DNA of 64,000 nt from Flavobacteriales bacterium. GTDB lineage: Bacteria > Bacteroidota > Bacteroidia > Flavobacteriales_F > PHOS-HE28. Below the pieces are notes generated by a model. That model made no database searches. It was not told where the DNA came from and worked only from the letters and a program-made list of their open reading frames with translations. Position 1 is the first letter of the stretch. Each line of letters starts with the position of its first letter. The position numbers and the translations under genes are program-made. Shown in pieces: positions 1-9,429 of the stretch. The stretch lies in contig JADJXH010000004.1 in assembly GCA_016715895.1 (NCBI GenBank), forward strand, positions 218,876 through 282,875, in the 5' to 3' direction.

Positions 1-972
1 GAAACGCAGCAGCAGCAGCAGGGAGGCCTCCGAGGAGCGGAGCACCTTGTCCTCGTTGCCCACGAAGCGGATGTCCTCCAGCACCACATGCTCGCCCGGA
101 GCGATCGGCGTGAGCTTCAGGTCCACTGTGACGGTGGGCTCCATGCTGCCCTTCACCTTCATCGTGGTGAACATGTAGCCTTCGCGCACGCAGCCGATCT
201 TCAGGTTGCGGTACATGTCCATGTCGAACGTGTACGTGCTCCTGCCCTTGGCCTCCACCACCTTGTCGAACACCATGCCGTCGATGGTGAGGCTCGCGTC
301 CACGGGCCTGCCGCTCTTGGCATCGGTGATGTTGATGACGAGCTGCTGTTTCTGCGTCGTCGTTTCCTCCACCACCGGCTTCGGCGGCGGGTCGTAGTGG
401 AAGTGGATCGTGTAGCCGGCCAGCGGACGGTCCTGATAGTCGACGACCAGATAGAACAGGTCGCCCTCCTTCACCTCGATGGCTCGGCTGTAGCTCGCAC
501 CCACACCGGAGCGCACGAAGTCCTCGGTCGCGTCCTTGCTGAGGCCGCAGCGGCTGCCGAGCGCGGGGTCGTTGCGGCTGATGTTCGAGCGCACCGGTTG
601 CACCAGGCGGCTCGGGATCTTGTCGCAGATGCCCGGGATGGCTCCCTCGAAGAGCAGGAAGTCGATGTCGTCCTCGGGGTTGTCCGGGATGATGTCGAAG
701 GTGAGCGTGGTGGTCACCGGGCTCCTGAACTTGTACCAGGTGCTGTGGTGCTCGCGCTCAAGCCACTGCAGGTGGTCCACCGGGTTCTCCCTGATCTCCA
801 GCTTGTTGCCGAAACCGCGCACGGCGTCGGCCTGGTGGAAGATGGAGTCGGCGATGGGGATGGCCCCGGTGCAGTCCCCGTTCTCCTGCGTGAGCCGCGG
901 GTTCTGCTGCGCCTGGACCGCGGTCGCGGCCAGGCTCAAGCCCAGGAGGTACAGGATGCGGATGGTTCGCAC
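1..972 (-). CDS. OmpA-family outer-membrane protein (partial; runs off the window start)
   Basis: Absent from the ORF track. My translation from GTG at 972 gives VRTIRILYLLGLSLAATAVQAQQNPRL (signal peptide), and the frame stays open to base 1, ending ...PGEHVVLEDIRFVANEDKVLRSSEASLLLLLRF, which looks like the start of an OmpA C-terminal domain. Confidence 0.7.
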   Translation of the reverse strand, partial: MRTIRILYLLGLSLAATAVQAQQNPRLTQENGDCTGAIPIADSIFHQADAVRGFGNKLEIRENPVDHLQWLEREHHSTWYKFRSPVTTTLTFDIIPDNPEDDIDFLLFEGAIPGICDKIPSRLVQPVRSNISRNDPALGSRCGLSKDATEDFVRSGVGASYSRAIEVKEGDLFYLVVDYQDRPLAGYTIHFHYDPPPKPVVEETTTQKQQLVINITDAKSGRPVDASLTIDGMVFDKVVEAKGRSTYTFDMDMYRNLKIGCVREGYMFTTMKVKGSMEPTVTVDLKLTPIAPGEHVVLEDIRFVGNEDKVLRSSEASLLLLLRF

Positions 973-1005
973 GGGACCTGCATACGCAGGGACCCCGACC
1001 AAGGT

Positions 1006-3687
<2,682 letters not shown>

Positions 3688-3688
3688 G

Positions 3689-4180
3689 TCACCCAGCTGA
3701 ATAAACCAACTTGCCATTATCCTTAGCCCACGCTTCCGTGAAGCCAACGTGCGAAATGGCATTGGTGCTTCGATCGAGCTTGGCTTCGGTCTCCTTGCAA
3801 ACGATTTCTGGGGCCAGTTCATATATGACCTTCACTTCCAAAGGCCTCTTCTTGAAGAAGACGGCTAGGTAGATCTTGCGATTGCGTCGTATCCTCTCTA
3901 ATGATGCCTGCCTCTTGTCCTCCGGCTTATTGAACACCCGGTCCAACTGTCCGGATCCGCCTTCGAGACATGATAGATACTCGTACAGCAAGTCCTTGTC
4001 CTTGCGATCACGCGCGTCAGAGTCGTGCTTGGTCACGATTACCTCATGGCCTAGTATCTCGGCGATGATTATCTCCTTCACAAGCCCCGGCTGCAGGACG
4101 TTGAGGATGCCTATGCTGGTGGCCAATTCTTGCGCCTGCCTGACCAAAGCCACAATGCTCTTCAGTACCGTCGGACTCAT
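3689..4180 (-). CDS. Putative PvuII-like type II restriction endonuclease
   Basis: 163 aa, lower GC than the flanks, coupled to a DNA methyltransferase. By eye the sequence is colinear with PvuII as I recall it: [14 protein letters not shown] ~ QDLALKHGINDIFQ, DSDARD ~ GNDAVD, YEYLS ~ YELKS, VIYELAP ~ [16 protein letters not shown] ~ VMEHGTKIY. Confidence 0.6.
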
Positions 4181-4968
4181 ACGAACAATGTGTATTCAGC
4201 CTCTTTTGAAATAGAGGCCACCCTCTCATTCGCTATGCGCACATAGTCGCTGTTTTGCTCGAATCCGATGAAGCTCCGCTTCAACCGCTGACAAACAGCC
4301 CATGTAGTACCGACACCGCTGAAAGGGTCCAACACTAGATCGCCCTCGTTCGAGCTGGCACGTACCAGTCGGTCGATCAACTTCTCCGGCTTCTGAATCG
4401 TATTCAATAGGTCACGGCTAATGAGCTCTTTGCTCTTGTAGGTAAGCTGTTTGATATCCCCCCAGACATCGCCAGGGTTCTTTCCTGCTTCATTAAAGCG
4501 TGTCTTTCCATACGTGCCGTTCTGAACACTTGGCACACGTTCACATCGAAGTCGATGCTCAAGCTCCACCAACTGAGGGACCCGGATATCATCAAGGTTG
4601 AAGGTCTTCGCCTTGCCTTTACTGAAGTAGCAGATGAGATCGTAGTTGTTGGTGTAATTGGTTCGACCCTGCGCCAAGCGACTAGGTTGATACCAAACGA
4701 TGCGCGCGTTCAACTTCAAGTAAGGCCTATAGTCGATGAAGTCGATGCAATCCTCCTTGCCGAAGAGGTACATGGCACCACCAGGCTTGAGCACTCGACT
4801 GAACAAACGCAACAGGTTAAAATTATACCCTTGGATATCGCCGATCCGATCCCAGTCCTGATCGGTCACACCGTATGGCCCATCGCAAATGATGAGATCG
4901 ACGCTTTCGTCCGGCACATGTGCAATGAGCTTCAATGCATCTCCTTGGTGAATGGTCTCGTGTTCCAT
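4177..4968 (-). CDS. Site-specific DNA methyltransferase, N6A/N4C beta class
   Basis: IHQGDAL start, motif IV-like DGPY near the N-terminus, QKPEKLI, and motif I DPFSGVGTT near the C-terminus (beta order). Confidence 0.9.
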   Translation of the reverse strand: MEHETIHQGDALKLIAHVPDESVDLIICDGPYGVTDQDWDRIGDIQGYNFNLLRLFSRVLKPGGAMYLFGKEDCIDFIDYRPYLKLNARIVWYQPSRLAQGRTNYTNNYDLICYFSKGKAKTFNLDDIRVPQLVELEHRLRCERVPSVQNGTYGKTRFNEAGKNPGDVWGDIKQLTYKSKELISRDLLNTIQKPEKLIDRLVRASSNEGDLVLDPFSGVGTTWAVCQRLKRSFIGFEQNSDYVRIANERVASISKEAEYTLFV

Positions 4969-5069
4969 GATGTTGAAGTTCGGGATGGTCCTTAATCTAA
5001 CTCAGTACGGCGATCATCATTTATCCACAGCGGATCTCCTTACTGCCAACCCAACTATCGTCGCGTCAA

Positions 5070-6071
5070 TCATGCCATTACCGGTGTTGCGCGTGGTGCG
5101 TGCCGCTTGGCTTCTGCCGCCAGCGCCGCGATATGCTCCGGCGTCGTTCCGCAACATCCCCCCACCACGTTCACCCAGCCGTTGGCCATGAATTCGCTCA
5201 CGAGGCGTGCGGTGACGTCGGGGGTTTCGCGGTACTCGCCCATCTGGTCGGGCAGGCCGGCGTTGGGGTAGATGCTCACGCGGCATGGGCTCTGCTCGGC
5301 GATCACCTCCAGGTAGGGCCGCATCTGGGCCGCGCCCAGCGCGCAGTTGAGGCCCATGCTGAAGAGCGGCACATGCTGCATGCTGATGAGGAAGGCCTCG
5401 ATGGTCTGGCCGCTGAGGGTGCGCCCGCTGGCATCGGTGATGGTGACGCTGCACATGAGCGGGACACGTGTGTTGCGTGCTTCAAAGACCTCCTCGATGG
5501 CAAAGAAGGCGGCCTTGGCGTTGAGCGTGTCGAAGATGGTCTCCACCAGCAGCAGGTCCACGCCGCCGTCGAGCAGGGCTTCCACCTGTTCCTTGTAGGC
5601 CGCCACGAGCTGGTCGAAGGTGACGGCGCGGTAGCCGGGGTCGTTCACATCGGGGCTGAGCGAGGCGGTCTTGTTCATGGGACCGATGGCACCGGCCACG
5701 AAGCGCGGCTTGCTCGGGTCCTTCTTGGTGAACGCATCACAGGCCTCCCGGGCCAGGCGCGCGGAGGCGAGGTTAAGCTCGCGCACCAGGTGACCGCATT
5801 CGTGCTCGGCCTGCGCGATGCGGGTGGCGCTGAAGGTGTTCGTCTCCACGATGTCGGCACCGGCCTCGAGGTATTGCTCATGGATCTTCTTGATCGCTTC
5901 GGGGCGCGAGAGCGAGAGCAGTTCGTTATTGCCTTTCAGCAGGATGGTGTGGTCCTCCATACCGGGCGGATGGAAGTCCTCCTCGGTGAGGCCGAGGCGC
6001 TGGATCATGGTGCCCATGGCGCCGTCGAGGACGAGGATGCGTTGTTGGGCGATGCGTTCGAGGTCTGTCAT
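5070..6071 (-). CDS. metH: Methionine synthase N-terminal part (homocysteine S-methyltransferase domain)
   Basis: LVLDGAMGTMIQ, ETNTF, GLNCALG, YPNAGLP and GGCCGTTPEHI. Start placed at ATG 6071 (MTDLERIAQQR). Confidence 0.95.
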   Translation of the reverse strand: MTDLERIAQQRILVLDGAMGTMIQRLGLTEEDFHPPGMEDHTILLKGNNELLSLSRPEAIKKIHEQYLEAGADIVETNTFSATRIAQAEHECGHLVRELNLASARLAREACDAFTKKDPSKPRFVAGAIGPMNKTASLSPDVNDPGYRAVTFDQLVAAYKEQVEALLDGGVDLLLVETIFDTLNAKAAFFAIEEVFEARNTRVPLMCSVTITDASGRTLSGQTIEAFLISMQHVPLFSMGLNCALGAAQMRPYLEVIAEQSPCRVSIYPNAGLPDQMGEYRETPDVTARLVSEFMANGWVNVVGGCCGTTPEHIAALAAEAKRHAPRATPVMA

Positions 6072-6116
6072 CGGTTCACAAGTGTGCGTGCTTTCCGGTC
6101 GCTCCTTCCAAATGCA

Positions 6117-6203
6117 GGTGAATGGGAGTTGGTGAATGGTGAATGAGACTGAGCGGTTCGGCGATGGGGTCTCCCATTCACCATCGACCATTCGCCATTC
6201 ACC
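6117..6203. repeat. Inverted array of 7-bp tandem repeats (GTGAATG x4 / CCATTCA x4) forming a hairpin
   Basis: Left arm gtgaatg-ggagttg-gtgaatg-gtgaatg; right arm ccattca-ccatcga-ccattcg-ccattca; inner stem gagac/gtctc. Confidence 0.85.
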
Positions 6204-6214
6204 GCACCCAGAAA

Positions 6215-6249
6215 CCCGCCGTCGTCCTCGTTCTTCGGACTATGGCGGG
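6215..6249. repeat. REP-like palindrome (CCGCCnTCGTCC...GGACTnnGGCGG type)
   Basis: cccgccgtcgtcc-tcgttcttc-ggactatggcggg. A near copy lies at 6375-6411 and a related one at 11611-11641. Confidence 0.7.
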
Positions 6250-6254
6250 CAAAG

Positions 6255-6286
6255 AAAAAAGCCCCACCCGATGGACCGGATGAGGC
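6255..6286 (-). terminator. Intrinsic terminator, expression platform of the SAM-I riboswitch
   Basis: Minus strand GCCUCAUCCG-GUCCAU-CGGGUGGGGC (10-bp stem with G-U pairs) followed by a U tract. Its 5' arm CUCAUC can alternatively pair with the P1 3' strand GAUGAG (antiterminator). Confidence 0.9.
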
Positions 6287-6323
6287 TGCATGCTCCCGAA
6301 GGAGGATCGCTACCTGATCACGG

Positions 6324-6461
6324 CTCATCTCTCCCACCATGATGGCGGGCTGGATTTAGCACCGATCGTCGGACGTCCGCCTTCGTCCGCTTTCACGGAC
6401 TTCGGCGGGACGATGGTTGCCAAGGCTTCACAGGGCCAGTCCCTCTGCCTTTCTGGATAAG
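6324..6461 (-). promoter_or_regulatory. SAM-I (S-box) riboswitch
   Basis: Minus strand cTTATCcagaaaGGcaGAGGGActGGCCCtgtGAAgCCttGGCAACC...GGTGCTAAATCC...GAGATGAG matches the SAM-I consensus, and it lies upstream of metH. Confidence 0.95.
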
Positions 6462-6480
6462 CGATGGAAAGAACGCGGGG

Positions 6481-6488
6481 CGAAGATA
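6481..6488 (-). promoter_or_regulatory. Bacteroidota sigma-A -7 element for the riboswitch transcript
   Basis: TATCTTCG on the minus strand, about 20 nt upstream of the riboswitch; a variant of TAnnTTTG. Confidence 0.6.
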
Positions 6489-6512
6489 GGTGGTGGACGG
6501 ACTCCGGCAGGG

Positions 6513-8216
6513 TCAAAGGCAATGGACCACGCGCAGGGCTCGCGCTCCTCGAGGGCCTTGAGCAAGGACGAGGTACACCCCGGCCGGTTGGGCGGCCATG
6601 GAGAACTCCGTGCGCTCGCGCGCGTGGGTGGTCCGCTCCAGAATGCGGCCGAGACCGTCGAGGAGCAGCAGCTCATCTCCGCGCTCGGTCCCCTCGACGA
6701 TCAGCACATCCCCCCTGATGATCGCATGCACAGGCAGCGAGGCGTGCTCCGGTAGGGATACGCCCCCCCCGTCGCACGAGGAGTTCACCGATCTGTACCG
6801 CGCCACGATCGCCGAACTGCTCGCGCTCGTGCTGATCAGTGCTGGAGAACCAGCCAGACCGACATTGGCGGAATCCGAGCACTGCCCACCGATCACCAAG
6901 GCATCTGCAGCGGACCAGGCCATGTCCATGAACCAGTCCTTGCCCGTTCCCTGCACCACGGTGCTCCAAATGTGGGAGCCGTCATCCAGGCAATAGGAAC
7001 CGATCCATGCTGTACTGGGAGGCCCTTGGGTCTGGTAGAGGATGGACCCGCTGCCCGGATCCGCATCCAAGGAGTGGGTGAAGGTGCCTGAAACCACCAC
7101 GGCGCCATCCTTGAAGGGGGTCATGCAACTGATCAGTTCATTTCCGTATTCCGAGAACAGGTCGCTCCATCCCGGCTGCCAAATGGTCCCCTCCAAGGTG
7201 TGGATGAACGCATCATTCCCCGAAGAGGTCAGTTGCTCCACCGTATCCGCGTTCGTGAACGTGGCCTGGCCGGAAAACGCGCCGCCGAGCACGATACCGC
7301 GATCAGGGAGCGGACGGACCAAGGGGGACTGCCACCAGACCGGCCAGTCGAAGCTCTCATGCCGCACATACCCTCCACCGGGGTCCAGCTTGATGGCGAC
7401 GGCTCCCTGATTCTGGCCGAAGTTGGTCCATGCCGTGTCCGGACCAGGGTCCACATCGAATTGTTGCATCGGGACCGGGCCGACCGTACGTAGGGAAAGG
7501 AGCAGGTCGCCTTCGGAGAACGCGAGGTCACAGGCGTACTCCATTCCAACACCACCCATCACGCCCGACCATTCGAGCTGGTCCATGGCATTGAGCTTGG
7601 CCACCCATACGTCGGAATACCCGCTGGAGCTCAATATGGCCACGTTCGGACCAGGATCGACATCAATGCTATCGGTGAACTGGCCGAGGAGGAAGACATC
7701 GCCCTGGTCGTTCGTGAGCAGGTGCATCGCGATGGAACCCTCGATCACCGAAGCGGCAACGAAGGTGCCATTGGTGGACCATCGGACGAGGGCCATCCCG
7801 TTCCCACTGACCATGAAAGTCCCGGGCCCGGGATCCGCATCCCAGCTTCCGTCCAGAAGCACGGACAGCACCACGTCACCTGCTGGTGAGACCGCGATCG
7901 CGCGCAGGGCGTCCGCTTTAAGGCCCCATTGGTACGTGCCTGAGCTGTCGTACTTGGCCAGGAAGCAGCCTGACCCCGGTAAACCACCGAAATTCCAGGA
8001 AAGGGTGGCCGAACCTGGCCCGGGATCAAGGTCGACGGACCCCGTGTTCGCCATCCGACCGAACACGTAGATGTTGTCCTGCGCATCCGTTCGCACCTCT
8101 TGGATCATCGACTCCCCGGATACGCCAAGCAGGTTGGCCCAGTGCAGGACCTGGCCGGCCGACAACAAGGGCAGCTCCATGAGCAGGAGGATCGGGATGA
8201 TCGCCTTGTGGCGCAT
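6513..8216 (-). CDS. T9SS-secreted beta-propeller (SBBP-like repeat) protein
   Basis: Signal peptide MRHKAIIPILLL, repeated DxDPGP and 'LAKYDSSG'-type motifs, and a C-terminal sorting-domain pattern (LLDGLGRIL...PAGVYLV). Confidence 0.75.
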   Translation of the reverse strand: MRHKAIIPILLLMELPLLSAGQVLHWANLLGVSGESMIQEVRTDAQDNIYVFGRMANTGSVDLDPGPGSATLSWNFGGLPGSGCFLAKYDSSGTYQWGLKADALRAIAVSPAGDVVLSVLLDGSWDADPGPGTFMVSGNGMALVRWSTNGTFVAASVIEGSIAMHLLTNDQGDVFLLGQFTDSIDVDPGPNVAILSSSGYSDVWVAKLNAMDQLEWSGVMGGVGMEYACDLAFSEGDLLLSLRTVGPVPMQQFDVDPGPDTAWTNFGQNQGAVAIKLDPGGGYVRHESFDWPVWWQSPLVRPLPDRGIVLGGAFSGQATFTNADTVEQLTSSGNDAFIHTLEGTIWQPGWSDLFSEYGNELISCMTPFKDGAVVVSGTFTHSLDADPGSGSILYQTQGPPSTAWIGSYCLDDGSHIWSTVVQGTGKDWFMDMAWSAADALVIGGQCSDSANVGLAGSPALISTSASSSAIVARYRSVNSSCDGGGVSLPEHASLPVHAIIRGDVLIVEGTERGDELLLLDGLGRILERTTHARERTEFSMAAQPAGVYLVLAQGPRGARALRVVHCL

Positions 8217-8390: not shown

Positions 8391-8834
8391 TCAGAAGCCG
8401 TGTTGCTCACCCCGTTCGATGACCTCTTGAAGCAACCGCAGATCCTTCCTCGCCACCCCATTGGGAGCCGTGGCCAACGCCTTCCGTGCCAACTCCGCGA
8501 ATCCCGGCAGATGGGGATTGCCTGCGCTCCAATACCCTGCGGGGTGGTTGATCCGTAGCAGTGCGTTCAACAGGTCGCCCGGATAGAATTCGGTCTCCAT
8601 CCAGGGGTCGCTCGCCAATAGCGCCAGGGCTTTCGGCACGAGGTGGCGCAGGCATTCGTTCTGGCCGATCAGGAAGCGCAGGTCGGCAGCCGACAGTTGA
8701 CCGATAGGGATGCGGTGCAGGGCAAAGTAGCGGCGCACGACCTCACTGTCGTCAGCATCAGGCACAGGCTGCGTCCAGGTCCACCCGCCCAAGGCACTGA
8801 TGCTATGCCGGTCGGGCTCCTTCTCCTTGTGCAT
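8391..8834 (-). CDS. CdiI-like contact-dependent-inhibition immunity protein (orphan)
   Basis: PIGQLSAADLRFLIGQNECLRHLVPKAL...EFYPGDLLNALL fits the 'DLRxxIGQxxGLxxLVP.A...YPGDLL' CdiI immunity pattern. Confidence 0.7.
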   Translation of the reverse strand: MHKEKEPDRHSISALGGWTWTQPVPDADDSEVVRRYFALHRIPIGQLSAADLRFLIGQNECLRHLVPKALALLASDPWMETEFYPGDLLNALLRINHPAGYWSAGNPHLPGFAELARKALATAPNGVARKDLRLLQEVIERGEQHGF

Positions 8835-8853: not shown

Positions 8854-9228
8854 CTACACTTCGTACATCAACACCGCCACCTCGTCCTTGATCCGCTCGA
8901 AGTCGCCATCGGCGGTGAGCAGGGGGATCTGTTGGGTCAGGGCCGTGGCGGCCACGATGGCATCCGGGATCTTCAGGCGGTAGGTCTTCCGTATGCGGAT
9001 GGCCTCTTCCATGATCCGGGCATCCAGCTCGATCATCGGCCACTCGTTCACGAACGCGGTCACGGCCTTGGCCTCTGCTCGGCTCATGCCCGGCTTGCTG
9101 AGCAACTCCATGTAGGTAATGAACGAAATGACCACCCGTTGACCTGAAATGGCATCGGCGGCGGACCTGTCCCCGCGAAGCAGAAAGAGGGCCACATTGG
9201 TGTCCAACACCAGGCTCTCACCACTCAT
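8854..9228 (-). CDS. vapC: VapC/PIN-domain toxin
   Basis: LVLDTNVA, ITYMELL, LKIPDAIVAATA and LLTADGDF. Start placed at ATG 9228. Confidence 0.9.
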   Translation of the reverse strand: MSGESLVLDTNVALFLLRGDRSAADAISGQRVVISFITYMELLSKPGMSRAEAKAVTAFVNEWPMIELDARIMEEAIRIRKTYRLKIPDAIVAATALTQQIPLLTADGDFERIKDEVAVLMYEV

Positions 9229-9394
9229 CCCGCCACTTGCGCTGGAGTGCAACAGGGTCTTCGTCGAGCTTGAGAACACCCACGTACTTGTAAACGTCCA
9301 CCGGCTTACACGCCTTGGCACGCTGGGTGCGGAGCTTCCGCAGCTGCATCTGGATGCGCTGCTTGGACATGCCCCGTTTGATGACCACCACCAT
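9218..9394 (-). CDS. Putative antitoxin
   Basis: 58 aa (MVVVIKRG...VGVLKLDEDPVALQRKWRDEW) overlapping the vapC start; typical size and position for an antitoxin. Confidence 0.75.
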   Translation of the reverse strand: MVVVIKRGMSKQRIQMQLRKLRTQRAKACKPVDVYKYVGVLKLDEDPVALQRKWRDEW

Positions 9395-9429
9395 ACCACG
9401 AAGATACAGCGGTCGCGGATGGACGTGCG

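Follow-up and report, generated by a model that had tools for sequence, protein, structure and literature searches.

The locus described here combines four kinds of element that are already known separately: the SAM-I leader of methionine genes, the split methionine synthase (MetH), the Type II restriction-modification (R-M) cassette and the movement of R-M genes accompanied by long target duplication. In the PvuII system the methylase and endonuclease genes are divergent. Insertion of R-M genes with a long target duplication was reportedly described by Nobusato et al. in 2000. It was also described by Furuta et al. 2010 (PMC2853133), which is a precedent for the insertion footprints reported below, and a split MetH consisting of three genes is found in Phaeobacter inhibens (PMC5764234). 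The DNA analyzed in our study (the window) is a stretch of 64,000 nucleotides (nt) of contig JADJXH010000004.1 from a Flavobacteriales bacterium. It carries a DNA methyltransferase gene (M) and a candidate endonuclease gene (R) between the two halves of a split metH gene, downstream of an S-adenosylmethionine (SAM) riboswitch. We assign a probability of roughly 60% to the reading that M and R are a mobile two-gene Type II R-M cassette, which entered the gap of an already split, SAM-I-led metH operon recurrently and is expressed there by read-through.

All coordinates are positions in the window, and the locus is read on the minus strand from 6560 to 1006. Its features are as follows.

6463..6322, minus strand: SAM-I riboswitch aptamer (RF00162), the operon leader; Rfam 84 bits, E 2.2e-18, full model 1-108
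6287..6250, minus strand: terminator-like hairpin (6287..6260; 12-pair stem with 7 GC pairs) followed by the T-run TTTTTTCTTTG, the riboswitch expression platform
6106..6213, minus strand: long imperfect hairpin of GGTGAATGG-type repeats, located 3' of the terminator and ahead of metH-N
6071 (ATG) to 5070 (stop), minus strand: metH N-half (metH-N), homocysteine S-methyltransferase (Hcy) domain, 333 amino acids (aa); PF02574 (S-methyl_trans) 2.7e-99
5069..4969, minus strand: spacer of 101 nt, the cassette leader, holding GAACTTCA, which ends 4-5 nt before the M ATG
4968..4177, minus strand: M, beta-class DNA methyltransferase, 263 aa; PF01555 (N6_N4_Mtase) 5.6e-42
4180..3689, minus strand: R, endonuclease candidate of PvuII fold, 163 aa; AlphaFold (AF2) and Foldseek; its start overlaps the M stop
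3687 (ATG) to 1006, minus strand: metH C-half (metH-C), 893 aa; PF00809, PF02607, PF02310, PF02965

A first-pass annotation had proposed the minus-strand order riboswitch, Hcy half, methyltransferase, restriction endonuclease (REase) and metH C-half, and every element was found where it had been placed, including the location of M and R inside a SAM-I-led split metH operon. The M stop and the R start overlap as ATGA, and the R stop (3689) lies 1 nt from the metH-C ATG (3687), as claimed. The Pfam domains of metH-C are the pterin-binding, B12-cap, B12-binding and activation domains, and the ORF list of the locus contains no third open reading frame (ORF) in the cassette. The GC content is 0.49-0.54 across 3600-5100 and 0.63-0.70 in the flanks on both sides, and the GC content at third codon positions (GC3) is 0.61 in M, 0.67 in R and 0.95 in metH-C. 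The insert, at 0.50-0.53 vs 0.65 in the flanks, is therefore poorer in GC than its surroundings, as the annotation had noted. Its description as foreign to the locus also held, on account of the low GC and the absence of R-M genes from the closest genome (L001, described below). Independent assemblies of different studies, taken from NCBI, JGI, ENA and Logan, show the arrangement again, and thus it is real and not an assembly artefact.

According to our preferred reading, the cassette would consist of a beta-class methyltransferase gene followed by the translationally overlapped gene of a PvuII-fold REase, and its hosts would be a genus-level clade of high-GC Flavobacteriales. The gap would suit selfish genes, since an insert on the operon strand would leave both metH halves intact and would be reached by read-through transcription starting at the operon promoter. 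Highly conserved coding sequence on both sides of the gap may provide homology arms for transfer between related genomes, and several entries or swaps by recombination anchored in metH-C would have produced long target duplications in some lineages. The cassette's own Bacteroidota promoter box, of the leaderless type, would have decayed in the window, so that M, R and metH-C would most likely be expressed from the riboswitch-controlled transcript. Their transcription would fall at high SAM, and metH-C would be translated right after R across the 1-nt spacing. Of this reading, the identities and positions of the genes, the conserved pairing, the insertion footprints and the discordance among alleles are observed, and enzymatic activity, co-transcription and a physiological role of SAM control are inferred.

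The identity of M and R as an R-M pair was examined in 80 genome loci encoding relatives of R. In 78 of these, across many phyla, R immediately follows M on the same strand, which supports the earlier claim of a genuine pair. A separate endonuclease gene beside the methylase gene, here with the ATGA overlap, is the arrangement of a Type II system, and the conserved M-then-R pairing is the strongest evidence that the two genes would work together as a Type II module. A single one of the 80 loci, in a Flavobacteriales metagenome-assembled genome (MAG), is inside metH, and the loci of other phyla have unrelated contexts. M matches the PADLOC model MTase_II at 7.4e-51 and has motif IV (DGPY) in its N-terminal part and motif I (DPFSGVGTT) in its C-terminal part, so both the catalytic and the SAM-binding motif of a Type II methylase are present. 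Of 76 M homologues, 75 keep DGPY/F, which departs from the usual (D/N/S)PPY. The solved structures closest to M are 8urk, M.MboIIA (1e-29) and M.RsrI (1e-22), and M.PvuII matches the C-terminal 56 residues only (E 2e-7). No R homologues were found in plasmid and phage collections. Palindrome avoidance across the 64-kb window gave no signal of an R-M site: GTCGAC (7 observed, 20.8 expected) was non-significant and CAGCTG was not avoided (34 vs 44.7). The only depletion was a generic one of CTAG, with 11 observed vs 70 expected in the whole window. The SAM consumed by a DNA methylase is negligible relative to the cellular total, so the argument of the first-pass annotation from a "SAM-consuming" methylase is weak.

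The split of metH could be placed precisely. When compared with the NCBIfam methionine synthase model PRK09490 (1234 positions), the N-half matches positions 11-339 and the C-half positions 345-1231, which indicates a clean cut at the Hcy/folate linker. A survey of the 80 loci with the closest MetH-C relatives found metH fused in 62, split at or beside the same linker in 12, some of which have gaps of only about 10-45 nt, and without an upstream N-half in the other 6. Split metH genes also occur in other lineages (Bacteroidota, Proteobacteria), with gaps of about 10-130 nt. The closest genome, L001, is a MAG of Flavobacteriales STL-BAC51 whose MetH-C is 89% identical and which has the same N-half stop, the same C-half start and the same riboswitch as the window. 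The same stop and start are also found in L081, L085 and L088, and metH-N has 87-93% aa identity to L001, L081 and L085. In L001 the gap is 628 nt long and contains a GxxExxY/PDDEXK_3 gene (6e-42) and no R-M genes. The split and the riboswitch are thus older than the R-M insert, since L001 has both without it. The idea that R-M insertion created the split was rejected, because L001 and other lineages are split without R-M.

The gap has also received inserts other than R-M genes. The GxxExxY unit (L001 5373-6000; L085 4478-5046) is bracketed by direct and inverted repeats rich in CACAGAG(G/A), for example ATGAATGCTTCACCACAGAGGCACAGAGG, and looks like a small mobile element. A third kind of insert was found at the equivalent site of L031, a Cyclobacteriaceae MAG, where the gap (5524-5877) holds a 23S_rRNA_IVP gene (PF05635, 1.6e-31) encoding a four-helix bundle. 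Taken together, the R-M, GxxExxY and 23S intervening sequence (23S-IVS) inserts show that small selfish genes of several kinds settle in the gap, in each case on the operon strand.

The leader of the operon is a canonical one. SAM-I was the sole Rfam family detected in the whole window, its score of 84 bits exceeds the gathering score of 44.4, and an intrinsic terminator lies downstream of the aptamer. Apart from this hairpin (6287..6260), neither strand has a terminator-like site in 900-6700. The same SAM-I element is located 5' of the metH N-half in L001, L004, L031, L081, L082 and L085. The 191-nt leader of the window, with its hairpin of GGTGAATGG- and CCATTCACC-type repeats, has a minimum free energy of -79.7 kcal/mol (z -5.1). 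A hairpin of different sequence is found at the same position in L001 (4200-4310; z -4.9). No Rfam family matched the hairpin at 6106-6213.

Several features of the locus bear on how M, R and metH-C would be transcribed. No terminator-like site was found after metH-N or after R in the scan of 900-6700, and the 101-nt spacer is not significantly structured (z -0.3). In all metH-resident alleles only 1-3 nt separate the R stop from the metH-C ATG, and a separate metH-C promoter would have to lie within the R gene. A sigma-70 promoter scan of the minus strand, which is ill-suited to Bacteroidota, found none; the Bacteroidota -7 box, TAnnTTTG, was examined in its place. Bacteroidota cassettes elsewhere have a perfect or near-perfect TAnnTTTG whose end is 4-5 nt from the M start codon (an exact match in L109, L113 and L152; TAAAATTG in L104, L118 and L153), which implies that the cassette would have its own, nearly leaderless promoter there. 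The metH-resident alleles read GAnCTTTG in L082, L085, L088 and L171, one mismatch from the box, and GAACTTCG in L175. The window's GAACTTCA has three mismatches, TA included, and TAnnTTTG has no match in 3600-6560. On this comparison with homologous cassettes, the cassette's own promoter looks decayed, most of all in the window. Read-through is therefore favored by the lack of a terminator, the 1-3 nt junction between R and metH-C, the unstructured spacer and the decayed box, and co-transcription of M, R and metH-C under SAM control fits this anatomy. In the rest of the window, TAnnTTTG was observed 10 times vs 3.4 expected, and half of the matches are 5-28 nt before ORF starts. This spacing suggests short or absent leaders, which are typical of Bacteroidota.

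The leading alternative, which we consider less likely, is that the cassette is autonomous and has its own promoter in the spacer or in M. The riboswitch would then govern only metH-N while metH-C would ride on the cassette promoter, placing R-M outside SAM feedback and leaving the two metH halves to be regulated separately. Since the cassette works amid unrelated genes across many phyla, it must frequently carry a promoter with it, the Bacteroidota copies do have the box just before the M ATG, and four metH-resident alleles keep it with a single mismatch. However, in the window itself the box is the most degraded, the minus strand has no sigma-70-like site, and nothing resembling a terminator follows metH-N that would stop read-through. 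A stricter version of our reading is doubtful in our judgment. In that version, cassette and operon would be mutually dependent, with R-M having lost its own promoter and being expressed only via the SAM-I riboswitch, metH-C only through M-R, and the metH flanks spreading the cassette from species to species. If it were true, restriction and modification levels would track SAM supply, and imprecise loss of the cassette would cost methionine synthesis, a form of operon-embedded stabilization of selfish genes.

The preferred reading also holds that the cassette reached the metH gap more than once. Six REase clusters are closest to the R protein of the window (77-94% identity), and five of them, which are diverged alleles from related metagenomic Flavobacteriales, are located between the metH N- and C-halves.

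P0001 (L088-90): between metH halves
P0002 (L175-177): between metH halves
P0003 (L085-87): between metH halves
P0005 (L081-84): between metH halves
P0006 (L171-173): between metH halves
P0007 (L174): the sixth cluster, outside the metH gap

The left junctions of these alleles are of different types. The 101-nt spacer is common to the window and L088-90 and is not found in the other alleles, and the spacer of L081-84 and L171-173 is about 230 nt long and consists of GC-rich repeats. In L085-87 the order is an L001-like GxxExxY gene, a cut-down copy of the first 100 nt of metH-C, the cassette and an intact metH-C, and in L085 the metH-C 5' end is thereby present as a direct repeat of 104 nt (89% identity) around a 1443-nt unit. 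In L175, 29 nt identical to metH-C nt 148-176 lie directly upstream of M. The breakpoints of the two duplications differ (nt 100 of metH-C in L085, nt 176 in L175). Long target duplication was defined by an R+M insert of <20 kb, a direct repeat of >30 bp present once at the empty site, and no mobility genes. L085 shows all of these, with L001 as the empty-site form, and L175 probably does. The metH-C fragment in L175 (3-911) is in one ORF with the methylase, of 302 aa vs 263 aa, so that the insertion has extended the M gene at its N-terminal end. The window's own copy has no flanking repeat. An origin of the last 20 nt before the window M ATG from metH-C was considered and rejected, since the best local alignment of spacer and metH-C is 8 nt; these 20 nt are homologous to the cassette leaders of other alleles.

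The similarity of the R-M genes also disagrees with that of their flanks. Over its first 690 nt, metH-C shows 90-95% identity among the window, L082, L085, L171 and L001, and the M and R genes of the window, L082, L085 and L171 have 71-82% nt identity, with third-position identity of 43-60%. Between the window and L088, M and R are 94-96% identical and the flanks are clearly more diverged, with an indel of 5 residues near the start of MetH-C and 82% identity across the final 34 residues of the N-half. L001, which is free of the cassette, is nested among carriers (93.6% identical to L171, 89.6% to the window). This discordance, together with the insertion footprints, indicates lateral movement into the site more than once, and we conclude that the cassette probably entered or was exchanged at the metH gap several times, anchored in conserved metH sequence. 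Whether the insert is ancestral in relatives had been raised by the first-pass annotation. The insert does have the same position in L081-90, L171-173 and L175-177, but its alleles are much more diverged than their flanks, or in one case much less, and two of them carry footprints, which argues for a repeatedly invaded site and not an ancestral gene. The suggestion that the position protects the cassette from deletion is not supported, because the nested relative L001 has no cassette and the 104-nt repeats of L085 would allow precise excision. Imprecise deletion of the window form of the cassette would, however, endanger metH-C expression.

A single ancient insertion followed by vertical descent, with evolution faster than that of metH and loss of the cassette in L001, is unlikely. 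It would explain why position, orientation and the tight R/metH-C junction are the same in all alleles, and the extreme GC3 and strong constraint of metH do depress its apparent divergence. It does not account for the flanks of the window and L088, which are more diverged than those of the window and L081, whose R-M genes are only 71-80% identical. Three left junctions and two long target duplications with different breakpoints also oppose it. In addition, the insert has a GC content of 0.50-0.55 vs about 0.65 in the metH flanks of its hosts, and so it is unameliorated.

The R protein belongs to a family of 907 homologues, nearly all annotated as hypothetical, from Bacteroidota, Planctomycetota, Chloroflexota, the candidate phyla radiation (CPR), Omnitrophota and other phyla. 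A 36-member alignment has a mean column identity of 62%, and the AlphaFold model built on it has a predicted local distance difference test (pLDDT) score of 92.5. In a Foldseek search of the PDB, the top 12 matches to R were all PvuII (E 1.5e-7 to 8e-6, template modeling (TM) score 0.59-0.63, identity 18-19%), followed by NhoI and then the N-terminal domain of Eco15I. By sequence alone R had no significant match to solved structures. The family profile gave E 0.063 with PvuII chains, the Pfam PvuII model (PF09225) scored 18.6 bits (E 0.0019), below its cutoff of 25, and no NCBIfam or PADLOC model matched R. The description of R as PvuII-like thus stands at the level of the fold, supported by Foldseek and the pLDDT score, and does not extend to membership in the Pfam family. 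In the profile alignment R D55 aligns with PvuII D58, and D55 and E67 are invariant. The family has E67-Y68-L69 where PvuII has E68-L69-K70 (residues 55-81, window 4018-3938), and the position of the catalytic Lys is Leu69 in all 36 aligned members. The invariant residues K51, R81 and K117 are candidates that could provide a relocated catalytic base. Active REases with motif variants that have no Lys are known, for example BglII and BamHI. That the 163-aa protein has no active restriction role, and is an altered PvuII-fold DNA-binding protein (a regulator or methyl-directed reader, for example) accompanying a methylase, is very unlikely: the Leu in the D...ExK motif, the methylation-dependent NhoI and Eco15I as next-best folds and the lack of REase model matches (in Pfam at threshold, NCBIfam and PADLOC) would suit it, but the residues aligned with PvuII D58 and E68 are invariant, the overlapping M-then-R pair is the classical Type II signature, a methyl-dependent nuclease beside an active methylase would be self-toxic, and Lys-less motifs do occur in active enzymes.

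Several points weigh against the reading of a mobile R-M cassette expressed by read-through. First, the Leu at the Lys position means that nuclease activity of the R candidate is not assured. Secondly, no public RNA run was found that holds the R-M stretch; the coverage of 3400-6500 by four public runs is confined to conserved parts of metH that come from other organisms, and the depth is 0 over 3712-5063. Third, the promoter argument is based on a consensus motif, the GAnCTTTG of the other metH-resident alleles may have kept its function, and M or R may contain promoters. Lastly, the contigs of L088-90 and L175-177 are 1.1-1.6 kb long, so their flank comparisons cover about 100-130 nt, and the weaker compositional constraint on the R-M genes (GC3 0.6-0.7 vs 0.95) could explain part of their divergence.

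Two other features of the window lie upstream of the locus on the minus strand. At 8854-9399 is a gene for a PIN-domain protein (PF01850, 7e-19), preceded by a short overlapping ORF (9218-9420) ending in LKLDEDPVALQRKWRDEW, and the two look like a VapBC-type toxin-antitoxin pair. At 8391-8834 is a gene for a 147-aa protein of the contact-dependent inhibition (CDI) immunity family CdiI_3 (2.6e-20), with no CdiA-like toxin gene noticed adjacent to it, so that the immunity gene may be an orphan.

These results are of interest for several reasons. First, they describe an unnamed and very conserved PvuII-fold family present in many phyla. Secondly, the alleles provide natural footprints of R-M cassettes moving without a transposase by anchoring in a conserved gene. 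Third, a module of defense or selfish character is probably transcribed from a metabolite-sensing riboswitch. If read-through is real, joint induction of M and R would coincide with a shortage of SAM, the methylase cofactor. If the SAM control is real, the locus would be a simple natural system in which to study how the balance of R-M expression copes with regulation by the methyl donor, and in which one could ask whether embedding in an important operon stabilizes selfish genes. If it is not, the locus is still an insertion hot spot between the halves of a split gene. A literature search found no paper that links a SAM riboswitch with restriction-modification and a DNA methyltransferase, and the probable regulatory capture of R-M genes by a riboswitch operon, for which no precedent was found, is new.

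The locus can be compared with each of the known systems. R is like PvuII in having the same small, homodimer-sized PD-(D/E)XK fold (163 vs 157 aa; TM 0.62 over the full length) and in the alignment of D55 and E67 with PvuII D58 and E68. It differs in its low identity of 18-19%, in the Leu for the catalytic Lys and in its sub-threshold Pfam score, and a family with this fold and substitution, without a Pfam (at threshold), NCBIfam or PADLOC model, is new. M also differs, having DGPY and not the SPPY of an M.PvuII-type N4-cytosine enzyme, and its nearest enzymes are the N6-adenine methylases M.MboIIA and M.RsrI. The cassette lacks a gene for a C.PvuII-like C protein, and its M and R genes are collinear and overlapping, in contrast to the divergent genes of the PvuII system.

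With regard to movement, the L085 form compared with L001 resembles described insertions with long target duplication, as an R+M unit without transposase or integrase, with a direct repeat of >30 bp and an insert of lower GC. However, the target here is the 5' end of an important gene, an intact copy of which always directly follows R, and the same site has been struck in several lineages with different breakpoints, the window copy having no repeat. The GxxExxY and 23S-IVS genes, which are small multi-copy inserts of Bacteroidota and Cyanobacteria, occupy the same gap on the same strand (L001 and L085; L031) but are single genes with CACAGAG-type repeats and no methylase-nuclease pair. As in P. 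inhibens, the MetH domains are on separate genes and are presumed functional, the break here being at the Hcy/folate linker. The difference is that here two adjacent pieces lie in one operon and the gap is a landing site for selfish genes. Lastly, the operon resembles other SAM-I (S-box) methionine genes in its canonical aptamer and terminator before metH, a leader that is found in relatives with and without the insert, and it differs from them because the unit under its putative control includes two foreign genes for DNA methylation and, putatively, cleavage. An R-M cassette recurring as several alleles in one gap of a riboswitch-led operon is new.

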